From: Candidatus Altiarchaeota archaeon
GTDB taxonomy: Archaea; Altiarchaeota; Altiarchaeia; IMC4; SCGC-AAA252-I15
Assembly: GCA_043804895.1 (NCBI GenBank)
Contig: JAZDIN010000003.1
Location: 1 to 59,814, forward strand
Reading direction: 5' to 3'
Length of the DNA stretch: 59,814 bases
Shown here: piece by piece, positions 38 through 52,478 of the stretch
Layout: every line of letters starts with the position of its first letter
Position numbering within the stretch: position 1 is the first letter of the stretch
The notes under the pieces: model-generated
The model's input: the letters and a program-made list of their open reading frames with translations, nothing else
What the model was told of the DNA's origin: nothing
Database searches by the model: none
Position numbers and translations under genes: made by a program

Positions 38-2932
38 GTGAGTATGGCTTCTAAAAAGAGGAGAATACAGTCAGAGGAGGCTTCAATCGACATACCCCTC
101 GGGTGGCTGGGCGACCTCATCAACGAACCCCTATTCCTATCCTCATTCTTCTGCCTGGCAATCGCTGTGGCAAAGACCCTTGCTAGGGGCACTCAAGTAA
201 GCTTCCTATATGATGTCGCGCCATTCGCCCTCTTCGCCCTTTTCATTTGGTCATCATACACGTTATACACTCGACCTAATCTGAGGAAAAACATTTGGAC
301 CTACGGGATGCCTGCCCTCATCCTCCTCACCGCCCTGTTCTCATACTACTCCAACAACTACGGCTTCCCCATGAACGAGGACTACAGCTACTTCAGCATA
401 ATGGCTGCCATATTCTGCATGTTCTACGCGCTCTCGTACTACAAGATCATCGACGCTGAGTCCTCAATGCTTCTGGCATTGTTCGCCTCAGCGCTTCTCA
501 TACACCTCGTCCCAGCCAACGCCGACATACTCTCCAACCTAGACTCCTACTGGCATTACAAGTGGATGCAGGTCTTCTACAACGACGGAATCCAGCCTGA
601 ATTCGACCCGCTCACATACCCCATGTACGGAGGCCTCGCACACCTCAACAACCCCTCTTACGCAAGCTCCCTAAATGTCCCCACGTTCGGGCTGGATCAG
701 AAGAACACTCCCATGCTGATGCAAATGACCTACGCCTCACTAGCCCTAACCTTGAAGCCGCTAGGCATCAGCCTCTATGACGTTGCGATGCTCTTCCCAG
801 GCATTCTCGGGGCGTTCAGCGTGGTCTTGATGTACCTCCTGGTGAAGGAGATGTTCTCTGACATGCGGCCTCACAACAACATAGCGGCGTTCGCCGCAGC
901 GTTCATGTTCATGCTCAGCCCAGCCTTGGCGATGAACTCCACAGCCACAAACTGCGAGGACGACTCGTTCGGGATGTTCCTTATGGTCGGCGTCCTGTTC
1001 CTCTTCTTCGCCTCATACCACCGCAAGAGCTTCAAGTACTCCGTCTACTGCGGCGTCGCATTGCTGATGCTCAGGCTCGGCTGGGGCGGAGGCCAGTACG
1101 CGGTGATGACGTTAGGCATATTCGGAACCTTGTACGCCATAGTACGGTTCCTGCGCAACACGAACGCTATGGAACACCTGCCTTACATAATAATCCCCTT
1201 CATGTTCTACCAGCTTTCAGCGTTCATAGTCCACGAGACAGGCGGCATGCCAATATACGTTCCGATGGCCCCGCTCGAACTCTACCCACTAATGTCCACT
1301 GTCGGCCTGTCCCTCACCCTCGAATTCCTGAGGGTGCGGTCGAAGGGCATGCAGTTCGTCAACGACGGCACAGTGGAGGGTCAGGTAGTGGACCTGATAG
1401 AGCGCAACATCATGGTGTTAGGTGCTATCGCCATACTCCTCGGGGCAGCGAGCCTGGTATTCTACAAGACCCCCTCACAGTGGATTGACTTCACTGTACG
1501 AACCGTGCTATCCCCTGAGGTAAAGAGCATAGTCCACCAGACGGTCGCTGAACAGAATCCCATGGCCACATCAGTCGACGAATTCATCTCAGAAGGCTAC
1601 AACCGCTACGGCATCGCACTACTATTCGGGCTCTTGATGATCCCAGTGATGCTGTACCTCATATACAGGCATGGGAGCGTCGGAGCCCTGTTCCTTCTCA
1701 CATGGAGCATCCCAATGATGTGGGGGGCCTACAACAAGAGCGCATGGATATTCGCCTCAAGCGCCTCAGTGACTGCATTGGGGGCGACGATAGGCCTGTT
1801 CTCCGCAGCCAGGAAGTCGGAGTTGGATGGATTCAGGGTCGTCGGGACCATACTGGTGCTCTGCATACCCCTCCTATACGTTCCCATGATCGGCTCGGCG
1901 ATGTACCAGAAGTTCGTAGGCTACGTGGTGATGCACATGGGCCCCACAAGCGACATATACTACTGGACTCCAGCCTTGGAATGGCACAGGGACCACACAA
2001 AACAAGGAGACGCCATCATAACCTGGTGGGACTATGGCCACTGGCTCACCGCAGTATCCCACCGTCCCGTACTCATCGACAACCTCCAGGCTGACTACCT
2101 TGAGATACAGGACGTCGCCCGCTTCTTTGTGAACAAGACATCCGAAGAGGATGCGTTCAAGACCGTGGAAGCCTACAACCAGGCATACAAGAAATACAAC
2201 CCCGAATGGGGCCTCAACTACGCCATGGTAGACTGGACGATGATAGGCAAGGGAAGCGCCCTACACTACATCGCCACAGGCGACATAGCGAACGTCACAC
2301 CAGGCTCATGGAAGAACTACGTGCAATGCGGGTTCCTCCCAGACCAAAGCCAGCTTGAGGAGAAGCTCACAGTCGAAAAGGACGGAAGCTTCTCCAAGAA
2401 CATGAGAATCGCATTCGGATGCCAGAACCAGTTATTCATCCTATTCGACATCTCAGGCGGGCAGCTTAAGGCAGCTAACGTCGTAACAGGATACGGTAAC
2501 ATCATCCCCTGGAGCACATGGTCCGCAGCCAATGACGCCTCCCTCCTCGGAGTCCAACCGCTAATCAGCTCACCAGACGATAAGGTTCCTGGGATACTAC
2601 AGTGCGCGATAAACTGGCGGAAGCTGCCGGCAGGCAGCATATGCAGGCTACCCCAGTTCACGACCCTAGTGTACGTGCCACAGGAGTTCAACGACTTCAT
2701 GTTGACTCGACTGTACCTCGGCAAATACCTGCAGGAGTACAAGGACCGCGGATTCTACAACAGGGAGGTAGTCCCGCTGAAACACTTCCGCGAGGTCCCG
2801 GACATCAACGGCGACGGAGTAGAAGACGGCGAATTCAGCTGGGGATTCGTCAGAACATACGAGATAAACTACGAAGGATTCCCAACAACGGACGCAGTAC
2901 TCACGGAACAGCCGGAAAACACTACAACCTAA
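38..2932 (+). CDS. aglB: Archaeal oligosaccharyltransferase AglB (STT3 family)
   Basis: 964-aa ORF. The N-terminal two thirds is a multi-pass membrane domain, followed by the STT3/AglB signature WWDYGHW (ITWWDYGHWLT) and a soluble C-terminal domain. GTG at 38, first ATG at 44. Confidence 0.9.
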   Translation: MSMASKKRRIQSEEASIDIPLGWLGDLINEPLFLSSFFCLAIAVAKTLARGTQVSFLYDVAPFALFALFIWSSYTLYTRPNLRKNIWTYGMPALILLTALFSYYSNNYGFPMNEDYSYFSIMAAIFCMFYALSYYKIIDAESSMLLALFASALLIHLVPANADILSNLDSYWHYKWMQVFYNDGIQPEFDPLTYPMYGGLAHLNNPSYASSLNVPTFGLDQKNTPMLMQMTYASLALTLKPLGISLYDVAMLFPGILGAFSVVLMYLLVKEMFSDMRPHNNIAAFAAAFMFMLSPALAMNSTATNCEDDSFGMFLMVGVLFLFFASYHRKSFKYSVYCGVALLMLRLGWGGGQYAVMTLGIFGTLYAIVRFLRNTNAMEHLPYIIIPFMFYQLSAFIVHETGGMPIYVPMAPLELYPLMSTVGLSLTLEFLRVRSKGMQFVNDGTVEGQVVDLIERNIMVLGAIAILLGAASLVFYKTPSQWIDFTVRTVLSPEVKSIVHQTVAEQNPMATSVDEFISEGYNRYGIALLFGLLMIPVMLYLIYRHGSVGALFLLTWSIPMMWGAYNKSAWIFASSASVTALGATIGLFSAARKSELDGFRVVGTILVLCIPLLYVPMIGSAMYQKFVGYVVMHMGPTSDIYYWTPALEWHRDHTKQGDAIITWWDYGHWLTAVSHRPVLIDNLQADYLEIQDVARFFVNKTSEEDAFKTVEAYNQAYKKYNPEWGLNYAMVDWTMIGKGSALHYIATGDIANVTPGSWKNYVQCGFLPDQSQLEEKLTVEKDGSFSKNMRIAFGCQNQLFILFDISGGQLKAANVVTGYGNIIPWSTWSAANDASLLGVQPLISSPDDKVPGILQCAINWRKLPAGSICRLPQFTTLVYVPQEFNDFMLTRLYLGKYLQEYKDRGFYNREVVPLKHFREVPDINGDGVEDGEFSWGFVRTYEINYEGFPTTDAVLTEQPENTTT

Positions 2933-4262: not shown

Positions 4263-4268
4263 TAAGTC

Positions 4269-4577
4269 CTATGGACACGTAGTCACAGTTACTAAGGATG
4301 TGATAGTCGTAGCAACTATTAGTATAACCCCGCCTATTACTGCGTGTATGCACGTGTCTTTTCCTGCTTTCCTCCCCCCTGGATCGTCTGAAGCGAAAAC
4401 ATACTTAACTCCACCATAAGTGAACATTATGACCATCAATGTACCTCCTATCGTTCCCAATGCACTCATAATAGGTTTCATTACATCACACACTGTCGTC
4501 TCTATGTCTGTTGCCGTCGCATACGACGCTAGTAACAGAACGTTTAACGCCGCTAGAATCCAAGTTTTTTTGTCCAT
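4269..4577 (-). CDS. VirB2/TrbC-like mini-pilin paralog 1 (first gene of the array)
   Basis: The ORF is open to 4607, but the ATG at 4577 (MDKKTWILAAL...) has GGAGGT 9 nt upstream. TTVCDV, YGGVKYVFASDDPGGRKAGK, and it ends ...VTTCP. Confidence 0.65.
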   Translation of the reverse strand: MDKKTWILAALNVLLLASYATATDIETTVCDVMKPIMSALGTIGGTLMVIMFTYGGVKYVFASDDPGGRKAGKDTCIHAVIGGVILIVATTITSLVTVTTCP

Positions 4578-6143: not shown

Positions 6144-6158
6144 TCAGTAGGTGAATAC

Positions 6159-6239
6159 ATGACGCCACCAAAAATCCTTTCAGTCACCGGGGTCCCCTGC
6201 AGCGGGAAGGCCCTTAAAATGGTGTTTTCGTCTATGTAA
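6159..6239 (+). pseudogene. Truncated 5-prime copy of the AK6/Fap7-type kinase gene (26 codons, P-loop only)
   Basis: Translates MTPPKILSVTGVPCSGKALKMVFSSM*. Nt 6177-6209 match 7306-7338 (start of the intact kinase gene) at 29 of 33 positions, encoding LSVTGVPCSGK in both. Confidence 0.45.
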
Positions 6240-6285
6240 ATTTTAAAAACATTTGTTTTTATTTAAAAACACTCATTATTATATC

Positions 6286-6858
6286 ATGCGGGGAAAAAAC
6301 GTGAGTATCTGGGATGTAGGCCCCATGAAGCTGCTAACATTCTTCATGGACAACCCCTACGGCGAAGTCTACTTGAGGGAGGCTGCAAAGAAGATTCACC
6401 TAAGCCCTTTTGCGGTGAAAAAATACGCTGACATCCTTCTGAAGGAGAGCCTCATAGTCGAGGAGAGGAGGGCTAATCTCAGAAATTTTAAAGCAAACAT
6501 GGGCAGCCTATTCTTTAGGCATCTGAAGGTAGCCCGTAACTTGGACCTTATCACAAAGTCTAACCTTTTGGGTTATCTGGTCAAACATACCCCAAACGTT
6601 TCCTCAATAGTCTTGTTCGGCTCAATGGCGCGCGGAGAAGACGATGGAAGAAGCGACCTAGACCTAGTGGTTATAGGAGCTAAAAAACAAATAAACCTAT
6701 CAGAGTACGAGGAAAAAGTGGGCCGGGAAATAAACGTGCACGTGTTCAGCTGGGCTGACTGGCAGAAGAAGGCTGCCGAAGACGCCCCCTTCTACAACGA
6801 GGTCATAGCTTCTGGCATCCCTCTCCAGGGGGAGATTCCGCAGGTACGATGGAAATAA
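6286..6858 (+). CDS. Minimal nucleotidyltransferase (MNT) with N-terminal winged-helix domain; HEPN/MNT pair
   Basis: Motif LFGSMARGEDDGRSDLDLVV (GS-x9-D-x-D). The ORF is open from TTG 6253. The ATG at 6286 is about 20-28 nt downstream of a TTTTATTTAAAAA TATA-like run. Confidence 0.8.
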   Translation: MRGKNVSIWDVGPMKLLTFFMDNPYGEVYLREAAKKIHLSPFAVKKYADILLKESLIVEERRANLRNFKANMGSLFFRHLKVARNLDLITKSNLLGYLVKHTPNVSSIVLFGSMARGEDDGRSDLDLVVIGAKKQINLSEYEEKVGREINVHVFSWADWQKKAAEDAPFYNEVIASGIPLQGEIPQVRWK

Positions 6859-7280
6859 GGACAATAGAGGACTGCATGGGGGAGAGGCTCCTAAGGAAAA
6901 TACTTCCAGACAAGGAGAAAAGCCAAAAATCAGTGGAGATAGCAAAGAAAAGATTAGCCGAGACGGAAAAAGCCATAAAACTCGAAATATACCCCTACGC
7001 GATACTGGAAGCTTACAACGCCATGTTCCACGCTGCAAGAGCTATCCTCTACCGCGACGGTATACAGGAAAAAAGCCACTACGCCGTCTACATATACCTC
7101 AAAGAAAAATACGCGGACAGAATACCGTCAACCACCCTCAACCTGCTCAACATACACCGGACTGAGAGACACGAGACACTCTATGGACTAGAATACGAGC
7201 CACACCGGACGGAAGCGCAAACCGCGCTAGAGGACGCGAAAACATTCCTACACCAAATAGAAAAAATATTAAAAGAATAG
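6849..7280 (+). CDS. HEPN domain protein (partner of the MNT)
   Basis: 143 aa, all-helical, HRTERHETLYG resembling the HEPN R-x-n-H...Y motif. Overlaps the MNT gene by 10 nt. Confidence 0.7.
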   Translation: MEIRTIEDCMGERLLRKILPDKEKSQKSVEIAKKRLAETEKAIKLEIYPYAILEAYNAMFHAARAILYRDGIQEKSHYAVYIYLKEKYADRIPSTTLNLLNIHRTERHETLYGLEYEPHRTEAQTALEDAKTFLHQIEKILKE

Positions 7281-7290
7281 CGGGTTTTCT

Positions 7291-7830
7291 ATGGTTTCCA
7301 AGGTTCTCTCAGTCACTGGAGTCCCGTGCAGCGGGAAGACGACTTTATGCTCTACTTTAGGCGTTGAACTTCAGATTCCAGTCTTGGATTTGACCCGGCT
7401 GGTTGATGAGGAGAAGCTTTACAGCGGCATTGACGAGGCCAGGGATACGAAGGTCGTGGACGTTGAAAAGCTGAGGAAGGAAGTCAAGAAGCTGATTAAG
7501 GATGACACGATACTTGATGGCCTCCTAAGCCACCACATGGATGTCACTCATATTCTGGTGTTACGTTGTGACCCTAAGGTTTTAGCCGAGAGGATGGCTG
7601 CTAGGGGGTATGGCAGAAAAAAGATCATGGAGAATCTGGAGGCTGAGTACGGGGGGGTTATACTCTACGAGAGTCTCAAAAAGTGCGGGAATGTGCTGGA
7701 GGTTGACAACATCAACGGCGCGGACTTGGAGGAGATAAAAAAATGGTTCAGGGAAGGGGGTAGGAAGGTAGTCGAGAAAGACTGGACCAATGAATTCGAG
7801 AGCGTGCTTAGAGGCCGTTCTCCCATTTGA
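7291..7830 (+). CDS. Putative adenylate/nucleotide kinase, AK6/Fap7 family
   Basis: 179 aa. P-loop VTGVPCSGKTT at the N-terminus. Size and layout match archaeal COG1936 kinases. Confidence 0.6.
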   Translation: MVSKVLSVTGVPCSGKTTLCSTLGVELQIPVLDLTRLVDEEKLYSGIDEARDTKVVDVEKLRKEVKKLIKDDTILDGLLSHHMDVTHILVLRCDPKVLAERMAARGYGRKKIMENLEAEYGGVILYESLKKCGNVLEVDNINGADLEEIKKWFREGGRKVVEKDWTNEFESVLRGRSPI

Positions 7831-8122
7831 TTGCCCATTTGCCGATGTCTTTGAATGCTTTCACCAGCTCCTGGCCTTTGTTGGTGAGGTTGTATTCGAC
7901 TCTCGGGGGTATTTCGTTGAATCTCCTCCTGTCTACGAGGCCCCTCTCCTCCAGTTCCCTCAGGCGTTTTGATAGTATCTTGGGGCTGATGTGGCCCATG
8001 TTTTCTAGGAGTTCGTTGAATCGTTGGGTGCCGTGGAAGTGCAGCTCTGCGAGTATGATGAGAATCCACTTCTTCGAGGCCAGGAATTCCATGATGTCCA
8101 CGGACTTCGTCTTTTTGGCCAT
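7808..8122 (-). CDS. HxlR-family winged-helix transcriptional regulator
   Basis: 104 aa. WILIILAELHFHGTQRFNELLENMGHISPKILSKRLRELEERGLV...PPRVEYNLT is typical HxlR. Its 3-prime end overlaps the kinase gene by 23 nt (convergent). Confidence 0.85.
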   Translation of the reverse strand: MAKKTKSVDIMEFLASKKWILIILAELHFHGTQRFNELLENMGHISPKILSKRLRELEERGLVDRRRFNEIPPRVEYNLTNKGQELVKAFKDIGKWAIKWENGL

Positions 8123-8232
8123 CCTACAGTTTCCCTTAGGAAACCTGAGTACTTAAATGCGTGAAAGAGGCTTAAATAACCAGGACTATCTTTAGGCTAC
8201 TGGCGGGGACGAGAATATTAGACCACCTAGAT

Positions 8233-33395: not shown

Positions 33396-33449
33396 TATAT
33401 GTATCCCTCCACAACCCAAAGGTTATGGTCTTCTGCTCTATCAGGATAA

Positions 33450-33473
33450 TACCACAGCCTCTAGGCTGTGGTA
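33450..33473. repeat. Perfect hairpin TACCACAGCC-TCTA-GGCTGTGGTA (family member 1)
   Basis: 10-bp stem read directly. Intergenic, 33 nt upstream of the next ATG. Confidence 0.8.
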
Positions 33474-33505
33474 ATTATTTAAGTATGCGGGCGTAAGGGA
33501 TAACG

Positions 33506-36665: not shown

Positions 36666-36691
36666 ATACCACAGCCTTCAGGCTGTGGTAT
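36666..36691. repeat. Perfect hairpin ATACCACAGCC-TTCA-GGCTGTGGTAT (family member 2)
   Basis: 11-bp stem read directly. Shares the GGATA..CCACAGCC left flank with member 1. Confidence 0.8.
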
Positions 36692-36706
36692 TTATTGCCA
36701 GTTGGC

Positions 36707-44760: not shown

Positions 44761-44852
44761 CCGCAGCCTGAAGGCTGCGGAATTTCAAATACGCTTGAAA
44801 TGCAAAACAGCGACAAACATGGGGTGAGAGCGAGTAGCCTCGCGTATTTGTA
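44761..44852 (+). promoter_or_regulatory. Repeated structured leader element, copy 1 (hairpin family member 3 plus CAAATACGC...GCGTATTTG long-range stem)
   Basis: CCGCAGCC-TGAA-GGCTGCGG (44761-80), then AATTTCAAATACGCT...CTCGCGTATTTGTA directly abutting the egsA ATG. Nearly the same sequence is at 52376-52478. Confidence 0.5.
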
Positions 44853-48434: not shown

Positions 48435-49232
48435 ATGACGATAAAAGTTGCGTTGATAGGGTTGGGGAAGATGGGTCGCGTATCGGCTAAGAGGATACTA
48501 GAGTCAGGCGATAGCCAGGTCGTCGCTGCATTCGACCTTGAGAACGTCGGAGCAGACGTCGGCGCGCTCGCTGGGGTTGGGGGGATTGGAGTGAAAGTCA
48601 CTCACCCGTCGGAGCTGGCGAATGTTCTTAAGAGTGTGAAGCCTGACGTCGCAATAGACTTCACATCAGCCAAAGCGTGCATTGAGAACGCGAAGACCGT
48701 TGCAGCCGCTGGAGTGAACATGGTAATCGGCAGTACGGGATTCACTGATGAGGAAGTTGGGCAGTTGAAGGACACCCTGAAGAGTGTCGGGGTAGTGTTC
48801 AGCCCTAACATGAGCGTCGGAGTCAACGTGTTCTGGAAGATAATCGGTGAGGCGGCGCGGAACCTGAAAGGGTACGACATCGAGGTCATCGAGGCCCACC
48901 ACAGGTTCAAGAAGGACGCTCCATCCGGGACTGCGATGAAGGCTGTGAAGGTATTGGCCGAAGCTGTTGGCGCAGACTTGAAGAAGGATGTCGTGTACGC
49001 GCGGCACGGTGACTGTAAGCGGAGGGATGGGGAAATCGGAGTCCAGAGCATCCGCGCGGGGGACATCGTCGGCGAACACACTGTCATGTTCAGCACAATC
49101 GGGGAACGATTCGAGGTGAGACATGTCGCCCACAGCAGGGACTCGTTCTCCTCAGGCATACCTTCTGCGGTGAGGTTCATCAAAGGGAGGAAGGGATTCT
49201 ACGACATGGCCGACGTGTTGGGTCTGAGATGA
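48435..49232 (+). CDS. dapB: 4-hydroxy-tetrahydrodipicolinate reductase
   Basis: [15 protein letters not shown] Rossmann start, [15 protein letters not shown] signature. Confidence 0.85.
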
Positions 49233-49801
49233 AAATCGTCGGAGTCAACGGAAGCCACAGGCCGGGCGGGAACACCGGCTATATGGTCGCGAAGGCCCTT
49301 GAAGTCTGCGCTGAGAAAGGTTTCGACGTCGAGCAGGTTGACCTCGCTGGAAAGGACATAGGATATTGCACTGTCTGCGACGGGTGCAGGGGAAAATACA
49401 CGTGCACGGTCGAAGACGACGTGATGGACATACTCGACAAACTCGCGGCCGCGGATGCTATCATAGTCGGAAGCCCCACATACTTCGGCGGAATCACTGG
49501 CAGACTACGGACGCTGTTTGACAGGACTCTCCCTTTACGTCGCAACGGTATGATGCTCTCTGGGAAAATAGGGGCCGCCCTCGCGGTCGGGGGGAGCAGG
49601 AACGGCGGCCAGGAGCATACCGTGCAACAAATACACTTGTGGATGCTCATACAGGAGATGACAGTCGTCGGCGACATGAAGACCGCCCACTTCGGAGGAA
49701 TATGCGCGGCCTACAAGCCCGGAACCGTGCCCGAAGACAAGGCCGGGATGGAGACGGTAACCAACACAGCAGAGAACGTGTGCAAGAGACTCAAAAAATA
49801 A
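49229..49801 (+). CDS. NADPH-dependent FMN reductase / iron-sulfur flavoprotein (Isf-like)
   Basis: [16 protein letters not shown] flavodoxin-like start, Cys cluster CTVCDGCRGKYTC. Confidence 0.6.
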   Translation: MKIVGVNGSHRPGGNTGYMVAKALEVCAEKGFDVEQVDLAGKDIGYCTVCDGCRGKYTCTVEDDVMDILDKLAAADAIIVGSPTYFGGITGRLRTLFDRTLPLRRNGMMLSGKIGAALAVGGSRNGGQEHTVQQIHLWMLIQEMTVVGDMKTAHFGGICAAYKPGTVPEDKAGMETVTNTAENVCKRLKK

Positions 49802-49995
49802 TGATGAAACGCGGTAAAACCTACAGTATCATCCTTGAAAAGGATGAGGATGGTTCCATAATCGCGGAGGTCGCCGGTTTGGCTGGTTGCCACAGCTGGG
49901 GTGAGACCAAAGTCGAGGCCTTGAGAAACATCAGGGAAGCGCTTGAACTTTACCTGATGTATGATGGGCTTTCGTTTGCTACACTAGCTCGGTGA
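49801..49995 (+). CDS. HicB-like (UPF0150) protein with a C-terminus running through a direct repeat into the hicAB cassette
   Basis: MMKRGKTYSIILEKDEDGSIIAEVAGLAGCHSWGETKVEALRNIREALELYLMYDGLSFATLAR*. The start overlaps the isf stop (TAATG). Paralogous to the 27969 peptide. Confidence 0.55.
   Translation: MMKRGKTYSIILEKDEDGSIIAEVAGLAGCHSWGETKVEALRNIREALELYLMYDGLSFATLAR
49946..49976. repeat. Direct repeat copy 1: AACTT-T-ACCTGATGTATGATGGGCTTTCGTT
   Basis: 30 of 31 nt identical to 50612-50642. On the minus strand it reads NESPSYIR-TAA, a pseudo-copy of the PAC2 gene 3-prime end. Confidence 0.85.
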
Positions 49996-50200
49996 ATTCT
50001 TCGACCGTCAGTCCCGCGCCGTCTATTATCGCATCTAACGTCCCAGTGTCTATTGACTGGTGTAATGGGACTACGACCTGTGCGAATGGTTTGTCCCTGC
50101 GCATTATAACATGGGATGACCGTTGGCGTCTAACGTAGAAACCTGTTCTCGTCAGTGCGCGGACAACCTTCTGCCCTGGTAGGCCTCTCGGAATCTTCAA
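49979..50200 (-). CDS. hicA: HicA-family mRNA interferase toxin
   Basis: 73 aa. ...GFYVRRQRSSHVIMRR...VVPLHQSIDTGTLDAII resembles the YcfA/HicA motif (GSH...vP.H..l..GTL..Il). Confidence 0.75.
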   Translation of the reverse strand: MKIPRGLPGQKVVRALTRTGFYVRRQRSSHVIMRRDKPFAQVVVPLHQSIDTGTLDAIIDGAGLTVEEFTELV

Positions 50201-50418
50201 TGTGCCGAAACCTCCACATTGAGTATCCTCTTGCCTACCTCCTGTGGAACGGTTATATTGTCCTCAATTAAGCATTCTATGTAATCGCTGATGGCTTCCT
50301 TCATGTTCTTCAAAGCCTCCTGGCTCGTCTTACCCTGTGAAACACACCCGCGCAGGATTGGGCAGATTGCCACATACCCGGATTCACGGCCTTTCTCGAC
50401 AACTACTGTGTACTTCAT
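50197..50418 (-). CDS. hicB: HicB-family antitoxin
   Basis: 73 aa. MKYTVVVEKGRESGYVAICPILRGCVSQGKTSQEALKNMKEAI... (UPF0150 core). 4-nt overlap with hicA. Confidence 0.75.
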   Translation of the reverse strand: MKYTVVVEKGRESGYVAICPILRGCVSQGKTSQEALKNMKEAISDYIECLIEDNITVPQEVGKRILNVEVSAH

Positions 50419-50427
50419 AAGCGACGA

Positions 50428-50567
50428 AACCGCCCTCCTTTGGGGGGGCGGTTAATGTATGCATCTACTATTGCGGTTTCAAGCTTATATGGCGGAGGCT
50501 TTGCCTCCGACATATGTGCTAGCGCATAGCGCTAGCCCACATCAAACCAGCGGCTTTAGCCGCTGGT
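50428..50567. repeat. Array of four different perfect GC-rich hairpins
   Basis: Hairpin 1: AACCGCCCTCC-TTTG-GGGGGGCGGTT (50428-53). Hairpin 2: ATATGgCGGAGGC-TTT-GCCTCCGaCATAT (50487-515). Hairpin 3: GCTAGCGC-ATA-GCGCTAGC (50518-36). Hairpin 4: ACCAGCGGC-TTTA-GCCGCTGGT (50546-67). Confidence 0.8.
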
Positions 50568-50611
50568 CGTTGATAACGTATCCCCATTACTACCTTCGTT
50601 TACAGATATAA

Positions 50612-50642
50612 AACTTCACCTGATGTATGATGGGCTTTCGTT
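50612..50642. repeat. Direct repeat copy 2 (true 3-prime end of the PAC2 gene)
   Basis: AACTT-C-ACCTGATGTATGATGGGCTTTCGTT. On the minus strand it encodes NESPSYIR-TGA. Confidence 0.85.
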
Positions 50643-51380
50643 GAGCATCTCCTGCTGACGTTCGGCGGTCTTCTTGTAGGTGTTTATCATCTTGCTCATC
50701 TGGCCTATCTGCTCTTCTGTTTGTTTGGCTTTCTTCTGCAGTTCTGCCATGTTGACTTTCACGTCGAGTATGCCTGTGAGCACTTTGAGGACTGCTTCCG
50801 CGCTTTTGGCGTCGATTATCTGGCCGTGTGTTTCGCCCATGAGGCAGACGGCCTCCAGTTTCCTGGGTATGGATAGTCCGAGTAGTAGTCCGCTTGCTCC
50901 GAATATTGCGCCGCCTCCCTTGAATATGATGCCGTACTTCTCAAGCTCTGTGACGAGGCTCGTGGATGTGGCTGCTCCGAATACGCGGGGGTTCTGGGTT
51001 ATTGAGCCTGTGCCGAGGCCTCCGAGCGTGTAGACTCTTTTCACATTGAATTCCTGCGCGAGGTCTAGGGTCTTTTCAGCGAGCTGGTATTGGCTGTCCG
51101 GGGTTATGCCCTGGAAGTCGCCGAGGAGGAATATGAGGTCCTTCGACCCCTTCCAATAGTAGAGTTCCATGTTCACGAGTTTTATCGTGCCGTCGTCCAG
51201 TATGTTCACCTGCGGCGGCAGAAAGGGTGAAATCAACTCAGCGAACTTCACGGCCTTCAGCTCGTCCTTCATGTGGTCTCCTGCGAGTTTGCCGACGAGG
51301 CCTATCCCAGGGAGGCCTTCTATCATTATCGCATCCTTCAGTTGAGGCCTTTCCGTAACATTGACGATGACGTCATCCAC
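50616..51380 (-). CDS. PAC2-family proteasome assembly chaperone-like protein
   Basis: 254 aa. IEGLPGIGLVGKLAGDH motif. Conserved position after aIF2alpha-nop10. GTG start overlapping the nop10 end. Confidence 0.65.
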   Translation of the reverse strand: MDDVIVNVTERPQLKDAIMIEGLPGIGLVGKLAGDHMKDELKAVKFAELISPFLPPQVNILDDGTIKLVNMELYYWKGSKDLIFLLGDFQGITPDSQYQLAEKTLDLAQEFNVKRVYTLGGLGTGSITQNPRVFGAATSTSLVTELEKYGIIFKGGGAIFGASGLLLGLSIPRKLEAVCLMGETHGQIIDAKSAEAVLKVLTGILDVKVNMAELQKKAKQTEEQIGQMSKMINTYKKTAERQQEMLNESPSYIR

Positions 51381-52375: not shown

Positions 52376-52478
52376 CCGCAGCCTGAGGGCTGCGGAATTC
52401 CAAATACGCTCAAAATGCCAACTAGTCAAACAAACAAAGGAGGTGCACGCGGGTAGAAAGATTGCTCGCGTATTTGTA
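52376..52478 (+). promoter_or_regulatory. Repeated structured leader element, copy 2 (hairpin family member 4 plus CAAATACGC...GCGTATTTG)
   Basis: CCGCAGCC-TGAG-GGCTGCGG (52376-95), AATTCCAAATACGCT (arm at 52401-09) ... CTCGCGTATTTGTA (arm at 52468-76) abutting the ilvH ATG at 52479. Confidence 0.5.

Follow-up and report, generated by a model that had tools for sequence, protein, structure and literature searches.

Background

Why should the last codons of a housekeeping gene occur twice, once at the end of the gene itself and once again on the far side of a toxin-antitoxin (TA) cassette that lies next to it? The question is raised by a locus in contig JAZDIN010000003.1, a metagenome-assembled sequence of a Candidatus Altiarchaeota archaeon; the whole contig of 59,814 nt was analysed and is referred to here as the window. 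A hicAB cassette in this window stands between isf, the gene of an iron-sulfur flavoprotein, and the gene of a PAC2-family proteasome assembly chaperone (hereafter PAC2), and a direct repeat which includes the PAC2 3' end is found on both sides of the cassette. On comparison with related loci, we consider it probable that the segment between isf and PAC2 is a stack of two generations of hicAB modules that arose as homology-assisted insertions recurred at the PAC2 3' end.

Results

The insert between isf and PAC2

The 31-mer AACTT[T/C]ACCTGATGTATGATGGGCTTTCGTT has only two occurrences in the window, spaced 666 nt apart (Table 1). The copies agree at 30 of 31 positions, and a match was obtained in none of 100 dinucleotide-preserving shuffles (chance expectation 0), which bears out the direct repeat that an earlier note on this DNA had described. 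That note had also taken copy 2 for the real end of PAC2 and copy 1 for a displaced one, and this view holds: the PAC2 C-terminus, ...E[S/T]PSYIR-stop, is nearly invariant in about 40 Altiarchaeota loci and copy 2 is therefore the native, constrained end, whereas copy 1 reads NESPSYIR-TAA on the minus strand, with no gene attached upstream, and has its right edge 2 nt from the hicA stop. Profile matches and coordinates likewise agree with the earlier description of the DNA between the copies as hicA, hicB and a 197-nt segment with four hairpins.

The search for an empty site which had been proposed with these claims was run, and isf was found directly convergent with PAC2 in six relatives. The two genes lie between overlapping and 18 nt apart in L003, L004, L007 and L042, and 50 nt apart in L155 and L156, which are among the closest relatives and syntenic throughout the neighbourhood. 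The approximately 810 nt at 49802-50611 are therefore a lineage-specific insert, and the repeat sequence is single-copy in the empty-site relatives, so that direct repeats around the insert are matched by a single copy where the insert is missing. The insert's GC content (0.48-0.52) is slightly lower than that of its flanks (0.53-0.57), a weak signal.

Besides the intact module, the insert holds a second HicB-like gene, hicB', whose start overlaps the isf stop (TAATG). This reading frame is native up to codon 52 (...EALELYL, approximately nt 49956), after which it runs on into antisense DNA, first 21 nt of PAC2 and then 19 nt of hicA. Twelve hicB' homologues, 75-88% identical over the matched part, agree with it through ELYL and then proceed as DVEKDAKPLKFLGVE.L.LAG, where the window reads MYDGLSFATLAR; the earlier account of a HicB-like open reading frame (ORF) that runs through copy 1, ends 19 nt later and has a remodelled C-terminus is confirmed by this comparison. 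Copy 1 is consequently of mixed origin. The E-L-Y-L codons native to hicB' make up its first 10-11 nt (AACTTTACCT(G)) and resemble the PAC2 stop region, and its truly PAC2-derived part comprises only the last ~21 nt, across which the focal copies are identical and hold no informative difference. The DNA at the junction reads GA[A/G]CT[T/C]TA[C/T]CTTGA in the hicB' homologues, GAACTTTACCT followed by GATGTATGATGGGCTTTCGTT in the window, and AAACTTCACCT followed by the same GATGTATGATGGGCTTTCGTT at the PAC2 end. When the window hicB', three homologues and the PAC2 end were aligned, the ELYL codons and the PAC2 stop region agreed in 10 of 11 positions, and the single T/C mismatch of the repeat proved to be the invariant Tyr codon (TAC) facing the stop codon of PAC2 (minus-strand TGA, plus-strand TCA).

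Judged from these alignments, the left junction is a microhomology-mediated deletion. The hicB' homologues always have a hicA' gene next to them, with intact hicB'-hicA' pairs in L064-L070, while the hicA' partner toxin is absent from the window locus; the deletion therefore took the hicB' C-terminus together with the hicA' toxin and orphaned the truncated antitoxin. Microhomology had been named in the earlier note as a possible route of insertion. It was indeed involved, but in a different step, namely a later deletion mediated by the 10/11-nt match, through which hicA' was lost and copy 1 acquired its left edge. A recent inverted duplication as the source of the two HicB genes was rejected, their identity being approximately 36-38% (tblastn).

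A reversed stack at the same site and other reuse of the PAC2 end

Both module families of the window occur in opposite order at the same site in L068, L069 and L070, which come from three samples (Table 1). There, the PAC2-end repeat brackets hicB'-hicA', i.e., the other module than in the window. In both genomes the intact module adjoins PAC2 and the decayed, toxin-less module is distal, an arrangement with the apparently newest module beside the anchor gene and an older one, its toxin lost and its antitoxin kept, further out. A tree of isf and the C-terminal half of PAC2 pairs the window with the empty-site locus L004 (support 90/92) and leaves L068 outside the pair, which favours, with moderate support, independent stacking in two lineages over a shared ancestral state.

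The PAC2 end has also been reused around other cargo. In L018, a 47-nt PAC2-end repeat encloses nothing but a hairpin element of 60 nt; its copies agree throughout their first 31 nt, and in the last five codons their only differences are synonymous ones and the stop (TCA/AGC, TAC/TAT, ATC/ATT, TGA/TAA). The P0122 contig, among the closest relatives with a PAC2 identity of 82%, has PAC2 followed by a 444-aa gene without a Pfam match and a 77-aa ORF with a weak PAC2 Pfam match; as read from the ORFs, this is probably further cargo bracketed by a PAC2 3' fragment.

Repeats around related modules at other genes

Modules of the same families at other genes are also surrounded by direct repeats, which are derived from whatever gene is local (Table 1). 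With the window and L068-70 counted, a flanking repeat was found in 7 of 9 independent contexts, as against 37 of 3126 (1.2%) pseudo-modules set at 150-nt intervals in the window and in 57 PAC2 loci (P ~1e-12). In a metagenome scan based on a hicB' alignment, 9 of 46 testable modules (7 unique of approximately 42 unique) had flanking repeats that measured 24 nt or more. The hicA stop and one of the repeat copies are 0-3 nt apart in the window, L064, L066, L068 and L141. The repeats of the related modules, 24-208 nt in length, have no common motif or core.

A second example in the window itself had been claimed, a TA module beside a duplicated gene terminus, and the MNT/HEPN cassette with its duplicated AK6-like kinase 5' end is indeed such a case; the kinase repeat copies differ at four positions, all four of them synonymous.

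Pfam searches of the cassette and of 20 window ORFs gave no recombinase, integrase or transposase, and the gene tables of L058-L074 list no recombinase. The cassette is accordingly integrase-less, as had been stated. No hicA relatives were found on viral contigs.

Probable allelic origin of the two copies

For repeats that allow a reading in the functional gene's frame, synonymous and non-synonymous codon differences between the copies were counted. The counts were 4:0 in L068, 7:1 in L066 (including CGC/AGA for Arg), 4:0 in the window kinase, 10:1 in L073 and 4:0 in L018 (including TCA/AGC for Ser). In these five clean repeats, 29 of 31 differing codons are synonymous (P = 5e-10 against a ceiling of ~40%, the maximum expected if the dead copy of an in-situ duplicate drifts neutrally); L062, with 12:7, was excluded from the main total. 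Since the differences are almost exclusively synonymous, the copies appear to be alleles from different lineages or strains and not in-situ duplications. On this codon evidence, the displaced fragment and the functional end evolved in functional genes of different lineages, and one of the two came with the cassette. At the focal PAC2 locus an allelic origin is suggested by analogy with these repeats.

The cassette and its leader

The intact pair (Table 1) combines HicA and HicB-like domains that are adjacent, co-oriented and translationally coupled, hicA having a TTG start in a 4-nt TTGA overlap with the hicB stop. By its domains and arrangement it is a HicAB type II TA module with a predicted toxin and antitoxin. 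The closest hicA homologues, 85% identical, belong to metagenome-assembled genomes (MAGs) of Altiarchaeota; hicA always comes after hicB, and the hicB-hicA order is kept in all close homologues. The cassette DNA is 71-72% identical to the L058 and L062 cassettes from the hicB ATG at 50418 down to 50001 or 49986, which is 7-22 nt short of the hicA stop.

The leader upstream of hicB has a minimum free energy of -80.3 kcal/mol (z = -5.5) and forms four separate perfect stems of 7-10 bp. No Rfam family reached its gathering score, the best being psRNA14 with 31.9 bits against 60, and no second copy of the leader or of its four hairpins was found in the window or in approximately 150 loci; it either arrived with the cassette or built up at the junction. 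Integron attC sites are imperfect palindromes of 57-141 nt with a GTTRRRY core. An integron gene cassette was rejected, as GTTRRRY is present on neither strand of the leader and the hairpins are separate short stems. A scan for bacterial-type promoters and terminators gave no usable signal, the models being bacterial and the host archaeal.

Hairpin-rich DNA was also encountered elsewhere. L062 contains two tandem 83-nt units (88% identical) with a GC-rich hairpin in each, within a 1.2-kb non-coding stretch upstream of its hicB homologue; the L062 and window leaders are both hairpin-rich and unrelated in sequence. Two intergenic repeat pairs of the window, one of 46 nt (89% identical) and one of 31 nt (90% identical), belong to the same hairpin-containing family, whose sequence bears no relation to that of the four hicB-leader hairpins.

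Further observations

In L155, the empty site contains one hairpin (AGCCGAGTATTTGCTCGGCT) and then a T-run, an arrangement shared by L156, which suggests a shared terminator that serves the convergent genes in both directions. HbYX motifs consist of a hydrophobic residue, Tyr and any residue; the PAC2 C-terminus, encoded at 50616-50645 in the window, has Tyr third from the end and is not a canonical HbYX. In L038 the gap between isf and PAC2 is occupied by a gene for a 195-aa archaellin- or pilin-like protein with a class III signal-peptide-like N-terminus (MKKHGMMGIGALIIFIALILVAAIAAAVLI), whose ATG overlaps the PAC2 stop and which has no flanking repeat.

When PAC2 was compared with its relatives in a sliding identity profile, no imported 3' segment stood out clearly. 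Neither PAC2 nor isf was found on another contig by exact-protein look-up, and searches of sequencing runs returned no run with the locus, only distant relatives at 4-7% of words.

Among the other loci, L058 carries a Cas12f1/TnpB-like gene approximately 3 kb from its repeat-less hicBA homologue, in two Altiarchaeota MAGs, and its cassette is set among AbiE and GvpL/F genes. In L057 (Candidatus Iainarchaeum), a 41-nt direct repeat (40/41) lies around a single 277-aa gene, and copy 1 overlaps the 3' end of an upstream 405-aa ORF; this may be an insertion of the same kind with non-TA cargo.

Table 1. Features of the window and of the related loci, with coordinates counted within each locus.
Locus	Feature	Positions	Strand	Remarks
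Window	isf (iron-sulfur flavoprotein / FMN reductase), left housekeeping flank	49229-49801	+	PF03358, E=2.4e-34
Window	hicB', truncated orphan antitoxin of the putative older module	49801-49995	+	PF15919, E=1.9e-6, residues 7-51
Window	Repeat copy 1	49946-49976		49946-49955/6, native hicB' codons; 49956/7-49976, last codons of displaced PAC2
Window	hicA, predicted toxin of the putative newer, intact module	49979-50200	-	PF07927, E=1e-13, profile positions 1-58/58
Window	hicB, predicted antitoxin of the putative newer module	50197-50418	-	PF15919, E=1.4e-10; 73 aa, no DNA-binding domain
Window	Leader, PAC2 stop to hicB start	50419-50615	-	197 nt; four unrelated perfect GC-rich hairpins
Window	Repeat copy 2	50612-50642		4 nt past the stop, TGA stop (50616-50618) and last 8 codons (NESPSYIR) of functional PAC2
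Window	PAC2-family proteasome assembly chaperone gene, anchor	50616-51380	-	PF09754, E=2.7e-52
Window	MNT/HEPN cassette	6159-7338	+	second in-window example
Window	Displaced AK6-like kinase 5' fragment	6159-6239	+	MTPPKILSVTGVPCSGK...
Window	MNT	6253-6858	+	
Window	HEPN	6855-7280	+	
Window	Intact AK6-like kinase start	7291-	+	
Window	Kinase repeat	6177-6209 / 7306-7338		29/33 identical
Window	Intergenic hairpin repeats	44761-44806 / 52376-52421		46 nt
Window	Intergenic repeats	33449-33479 / 36666-36696		31 nt
L068-70	isf			left flank
L068-70	hicB pseudogene, family of the intact window module			72% identical to window hicB (aa); lacks start codon and hicA
L068-70	PAC2-end copy	1303-1357		55 nt
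L068-70	Spacer after PAC2-end copy			45 nt
L068-70	hicB'-hicA'			intact; hicB' 82% identical to window ORF
L068-70	Spacer before real PAC2 end			2-3 nt
L068-70	Real PAC2 end	1958-2012		
L018	PAC2-end repeat with hairpin element	2170-2335		
L155	Empty site	4266-4315		
L038	Archaellin-/pilin-like gene	569-1156		
L057	Direct repeat around 277-aa gene	6969-8149		
L058	Cas12f1/TnpB-like gene	6153-6225		
L062	Tandem 83-nt units	2254-2424		
L064/65	hicB'A' with flanking repeat			62 nt (60/62); PheRS-alpha 3' end
L066/67	hicB'A' with flanking repeat			55 nt (45/55); 3' end of upstream 305-aa gene
L062/63	hicBA, family of the intact window module, with flanking repeat			208 nt (90%); V4R gene
L072/73	hicBA, family of the intact window module, with flanking repeat			at least 168 nt (157/168); neighbouring ~200-aa ORF
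L074	hicBA, family of the intact window module, with flanking repeat			24 nt (22/24); intergenic
L058, L071	hicBA, family of the intact window module			no flanking repeat

Discussion

The order of modules, the repeats and the left junction can be accommodated by three steps. To begin with, as L068-70 suggest, hicB'-hicA' would have stood between isf and PAC2, convergent with PAC2. An incoming piece of DNA with the leader, hicB, hicA and a short PAC2 3' piece may then have recombined with the resident PAC2 terminus, by one crossover within the shared PAC2 sequence and one illegitimate joint beside the hicA stop. Homology-facilitated illegitimate recombination of a linear molecule and Campbell-type integration of a circularised one by a single crossover would give the same product: PAC2 would retain an intact C-terminus, a second copy of the terminus would lie beyond the cassette, and the older module would be pushed away from PAC2. 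The last step, which is legible at the left junction, is the deletion between AACTTTACCT(G) in the ELYL codons of hicB' and AACTTCACCTG at the displaced PAC2 stop, by which the hicB' C-terminus and the entire hicA' were lost and the truncated orphan antitoxin came to abut the isf stop. A duplicated terminus would be seen because, with the two genes isf and PAC2 directly adjacent and the C-terminus of PAC2 conserved, only insertions which duplicate the terminus spare both genes; conservation of the terminus is probably why insertions must preserve the PAC2 end. Repeated events at one anchor would push older modules outward, and loss of their toxins would leave orphan antitoxins. Host recombination would suffice for this, with no recombinase encoded by the cassette, and the same would hold generally for this hicAB lineage and for other TA cassettes in these genomes. 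It is probably a homology-driven, recombinase-free and recurring route by which such cassettes spread and displace older ones.

Several points weigh against this interpretation. Two close hicBA contexts, L058 and L071, have no flanking repeat. A PAC2-end copy and a leader would be expected upstream of hicB' and are absent, hicB' starting on the isf stop; an extra, unexplained deletion by which both were lost, or a different first event, is therefore needed. The geometry of L062, where the fragment is upstream of the full gene when read in that gene's direction, is not what a simple single crossover would produce. At the focal locus, 21 nt without a difference between the copies make the allelic test inapplicable and leave the mechanism to analogy with the relatives. 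In addition, the tree support of 90/92 is only moderate, and the comparison rests on relatives with at most 82-83% PAC2 identity (the nearest anywhere), none of the same species.

The earlier note had read the repeats as attL and attR. Site-specific integration of this kind, in which the 31-mer would be the att core and a tyrosine or serine recombinase would act in trans on an integrase-less element, would account for direct repeats that flank the insert exactly, for the empty site, and for a PAC2 3' end that has been reused in four or more lineages (L018, L068-70, the P0122 contig and the window). The reading was not sustained and we regard it as unlikely. The length of the PAC2-end repeat varies from 21 (31) through 47 and 55 to approximately 230 nt, the last by ORF length; the same module families are found at other genes within unrelated local repeats of 24-208 nt that share no core; the copies differ synonymously along their whole length, as alleles would; the left edge of copy 1 stems from the microhomology deletion and is not an att border; and neither an integrase nor a shared att core was found among the 20 window ORFs or near the related cassettes. 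Transposons, insertion sequences and miniature inverted-repeat transposable elements were rejected, as there is no inverted repeat at the cassette ends and the repeats range from 21 to 208 nt. Variable lengths would fit non-enzymatic staggers, and a long target-site duplication made in situ, by staggered breaks 20-200 nt apart or by a template switch during replication, would need no incoming homology; it would also explain why the focal copies are identical over the 21 PAC2-derived nt, and insertion with long target duplication, of unknown mechanism, has been described for restriction-modification genes (PMC2853133). The strong excess of synonymous differences in the five frame-readable repeats is unlike the neutral decay of a dead copy, and this explanation also appears improbable.

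Another possibility is that the cassette never had a flanking repeat and that the 21-nt PAC2 piece was copied from 650 nt away during the microhomology repair that deleted the hicB' 3' end and hicA'. The 10/11-nt microhomology at the left junction is in keeping with such a templated patch, and other organisms are known to acquire templated insertions where alternative end joining has occurred. The patch would, however, need a second switch to within 2 nt of the hicA stop, where there is no microhomology, and it accounts for the left junction alone. In four other cassettes, a repeat copy comes within 0-3 nt of the hicA stop and no deletion is involved; the arrangement is therefore a property of the insertion itself, and we hold a templated patch to be very unlikely. 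That the arrangement reflects chance similarity or an artefact of assembly could be suspected from the metagenomic origin of the contig, but it is hardly credible given the shuffling result, the recurrence of the arrangement in three independent samples (L068-70) and of other loci in two samples each, and repeats which are shorter than assembler k-mers and embedded in unique sequence.

Stacking by homology-assisted insertion has parallels in several known systems. C-terminal displacement is known in Rhs and contact-dependent inhibition loci, and insertion with long target duplication was reportedly described for restriction-modification gene complexes by Nobusato et al. in 2000. Furuta, Abe and Kobayashi (2010) surveyed restriction-modification insertions with direct repeats of 46-423 bp, often over gene 3' ends, and left the mechanism open; they required an insert below 20 kb without another mobile element and a repeat longer than 30 bp that is single-copy in the empty-site genome, and their cases were bacterial only, no archaeal one having passed the filters (PMC2853133). 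The locus resembles these cases in being a small addiction-type unit, without transposase or integrase, between conserved genes, with variable direct repeats longer than the target duplications of transposons and a single copy in the empty-site genome. It differs in its cargo, a type II hicAB module, and in its archaeal host. The focal duplicated part of 21 nt (nominally 31) falls below the 30-bp cut-off of that study, whereas the relatives L068 (55 nt), L064 (62 nt) and L066 (55 nt) exceed it, and the synonymous-only differences point to capture of an allelic flank and not to duplication of a resident target.

Kirchberger et al. (2017) described effector-immunity modules of the type VI secretion system that are sequentially displaced and leave orphan immunity genes behind, and proposed homology-facilitated illegitimate recombination (PMC5361080). 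Those arrays likewise have a conserved anchor beside the newest module and distal older ones with the toxin lost and the immunity gene or antitoxin orphaned, and a one-sided homology anchor with an illegitimate joint was proposed for them as well. Here, in contrast, the anchor is an unrelated housekeeping gene (PAC2, PheRS, kinase), the cargo consists of intracellular type II TA pairs, and short anchor fragments of 21-62 nt lie between the units. Integrase-less cis-mobilisable elements with att sites at tRNA or gene 3' ends share the repeats that copy the target 3' end, the restored gene, serial stacking and the lack of an internal recombinase; unlike them, the present cassettes have no conserved att core, their repeats vary in sequence and length within one cargo family, and no integrase was found nearby. 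In the literature, we found no description of such insertion for type II TA cassettes or for archaea.

Conclusions

The focal locus would be an ordinary product of this process; the cross-genome pattern and the synonymous-difference test may have wider use. The test separates allelic flank capture from true target duplication and is applicable to the long duplications of restriction-modification genes, and the phenomenon of long target duplication would be extended to archaea. The spread of chromosomal TA modules that are not carried on plasmids, phages or transposons is poorly understood, and the locus and its relatives offer a model at the level of sequence in which cassettes would land at the ends of tightly packed housekeeping genes, carry along a fragment of the gene of the prior host and stack by displacement. 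More tentatively, the chromosomal TA cassettes of Altiarchaeota, and possibly of a wider range of genomes, might be recombinase-free hitch-hikers, for which the end of the last neighbour's gene serves as an address label for host recombination and which form stacks that orphan the older antitoxins. If true, this would provide a general answer to how TA modules move without the genes of mobile elements.

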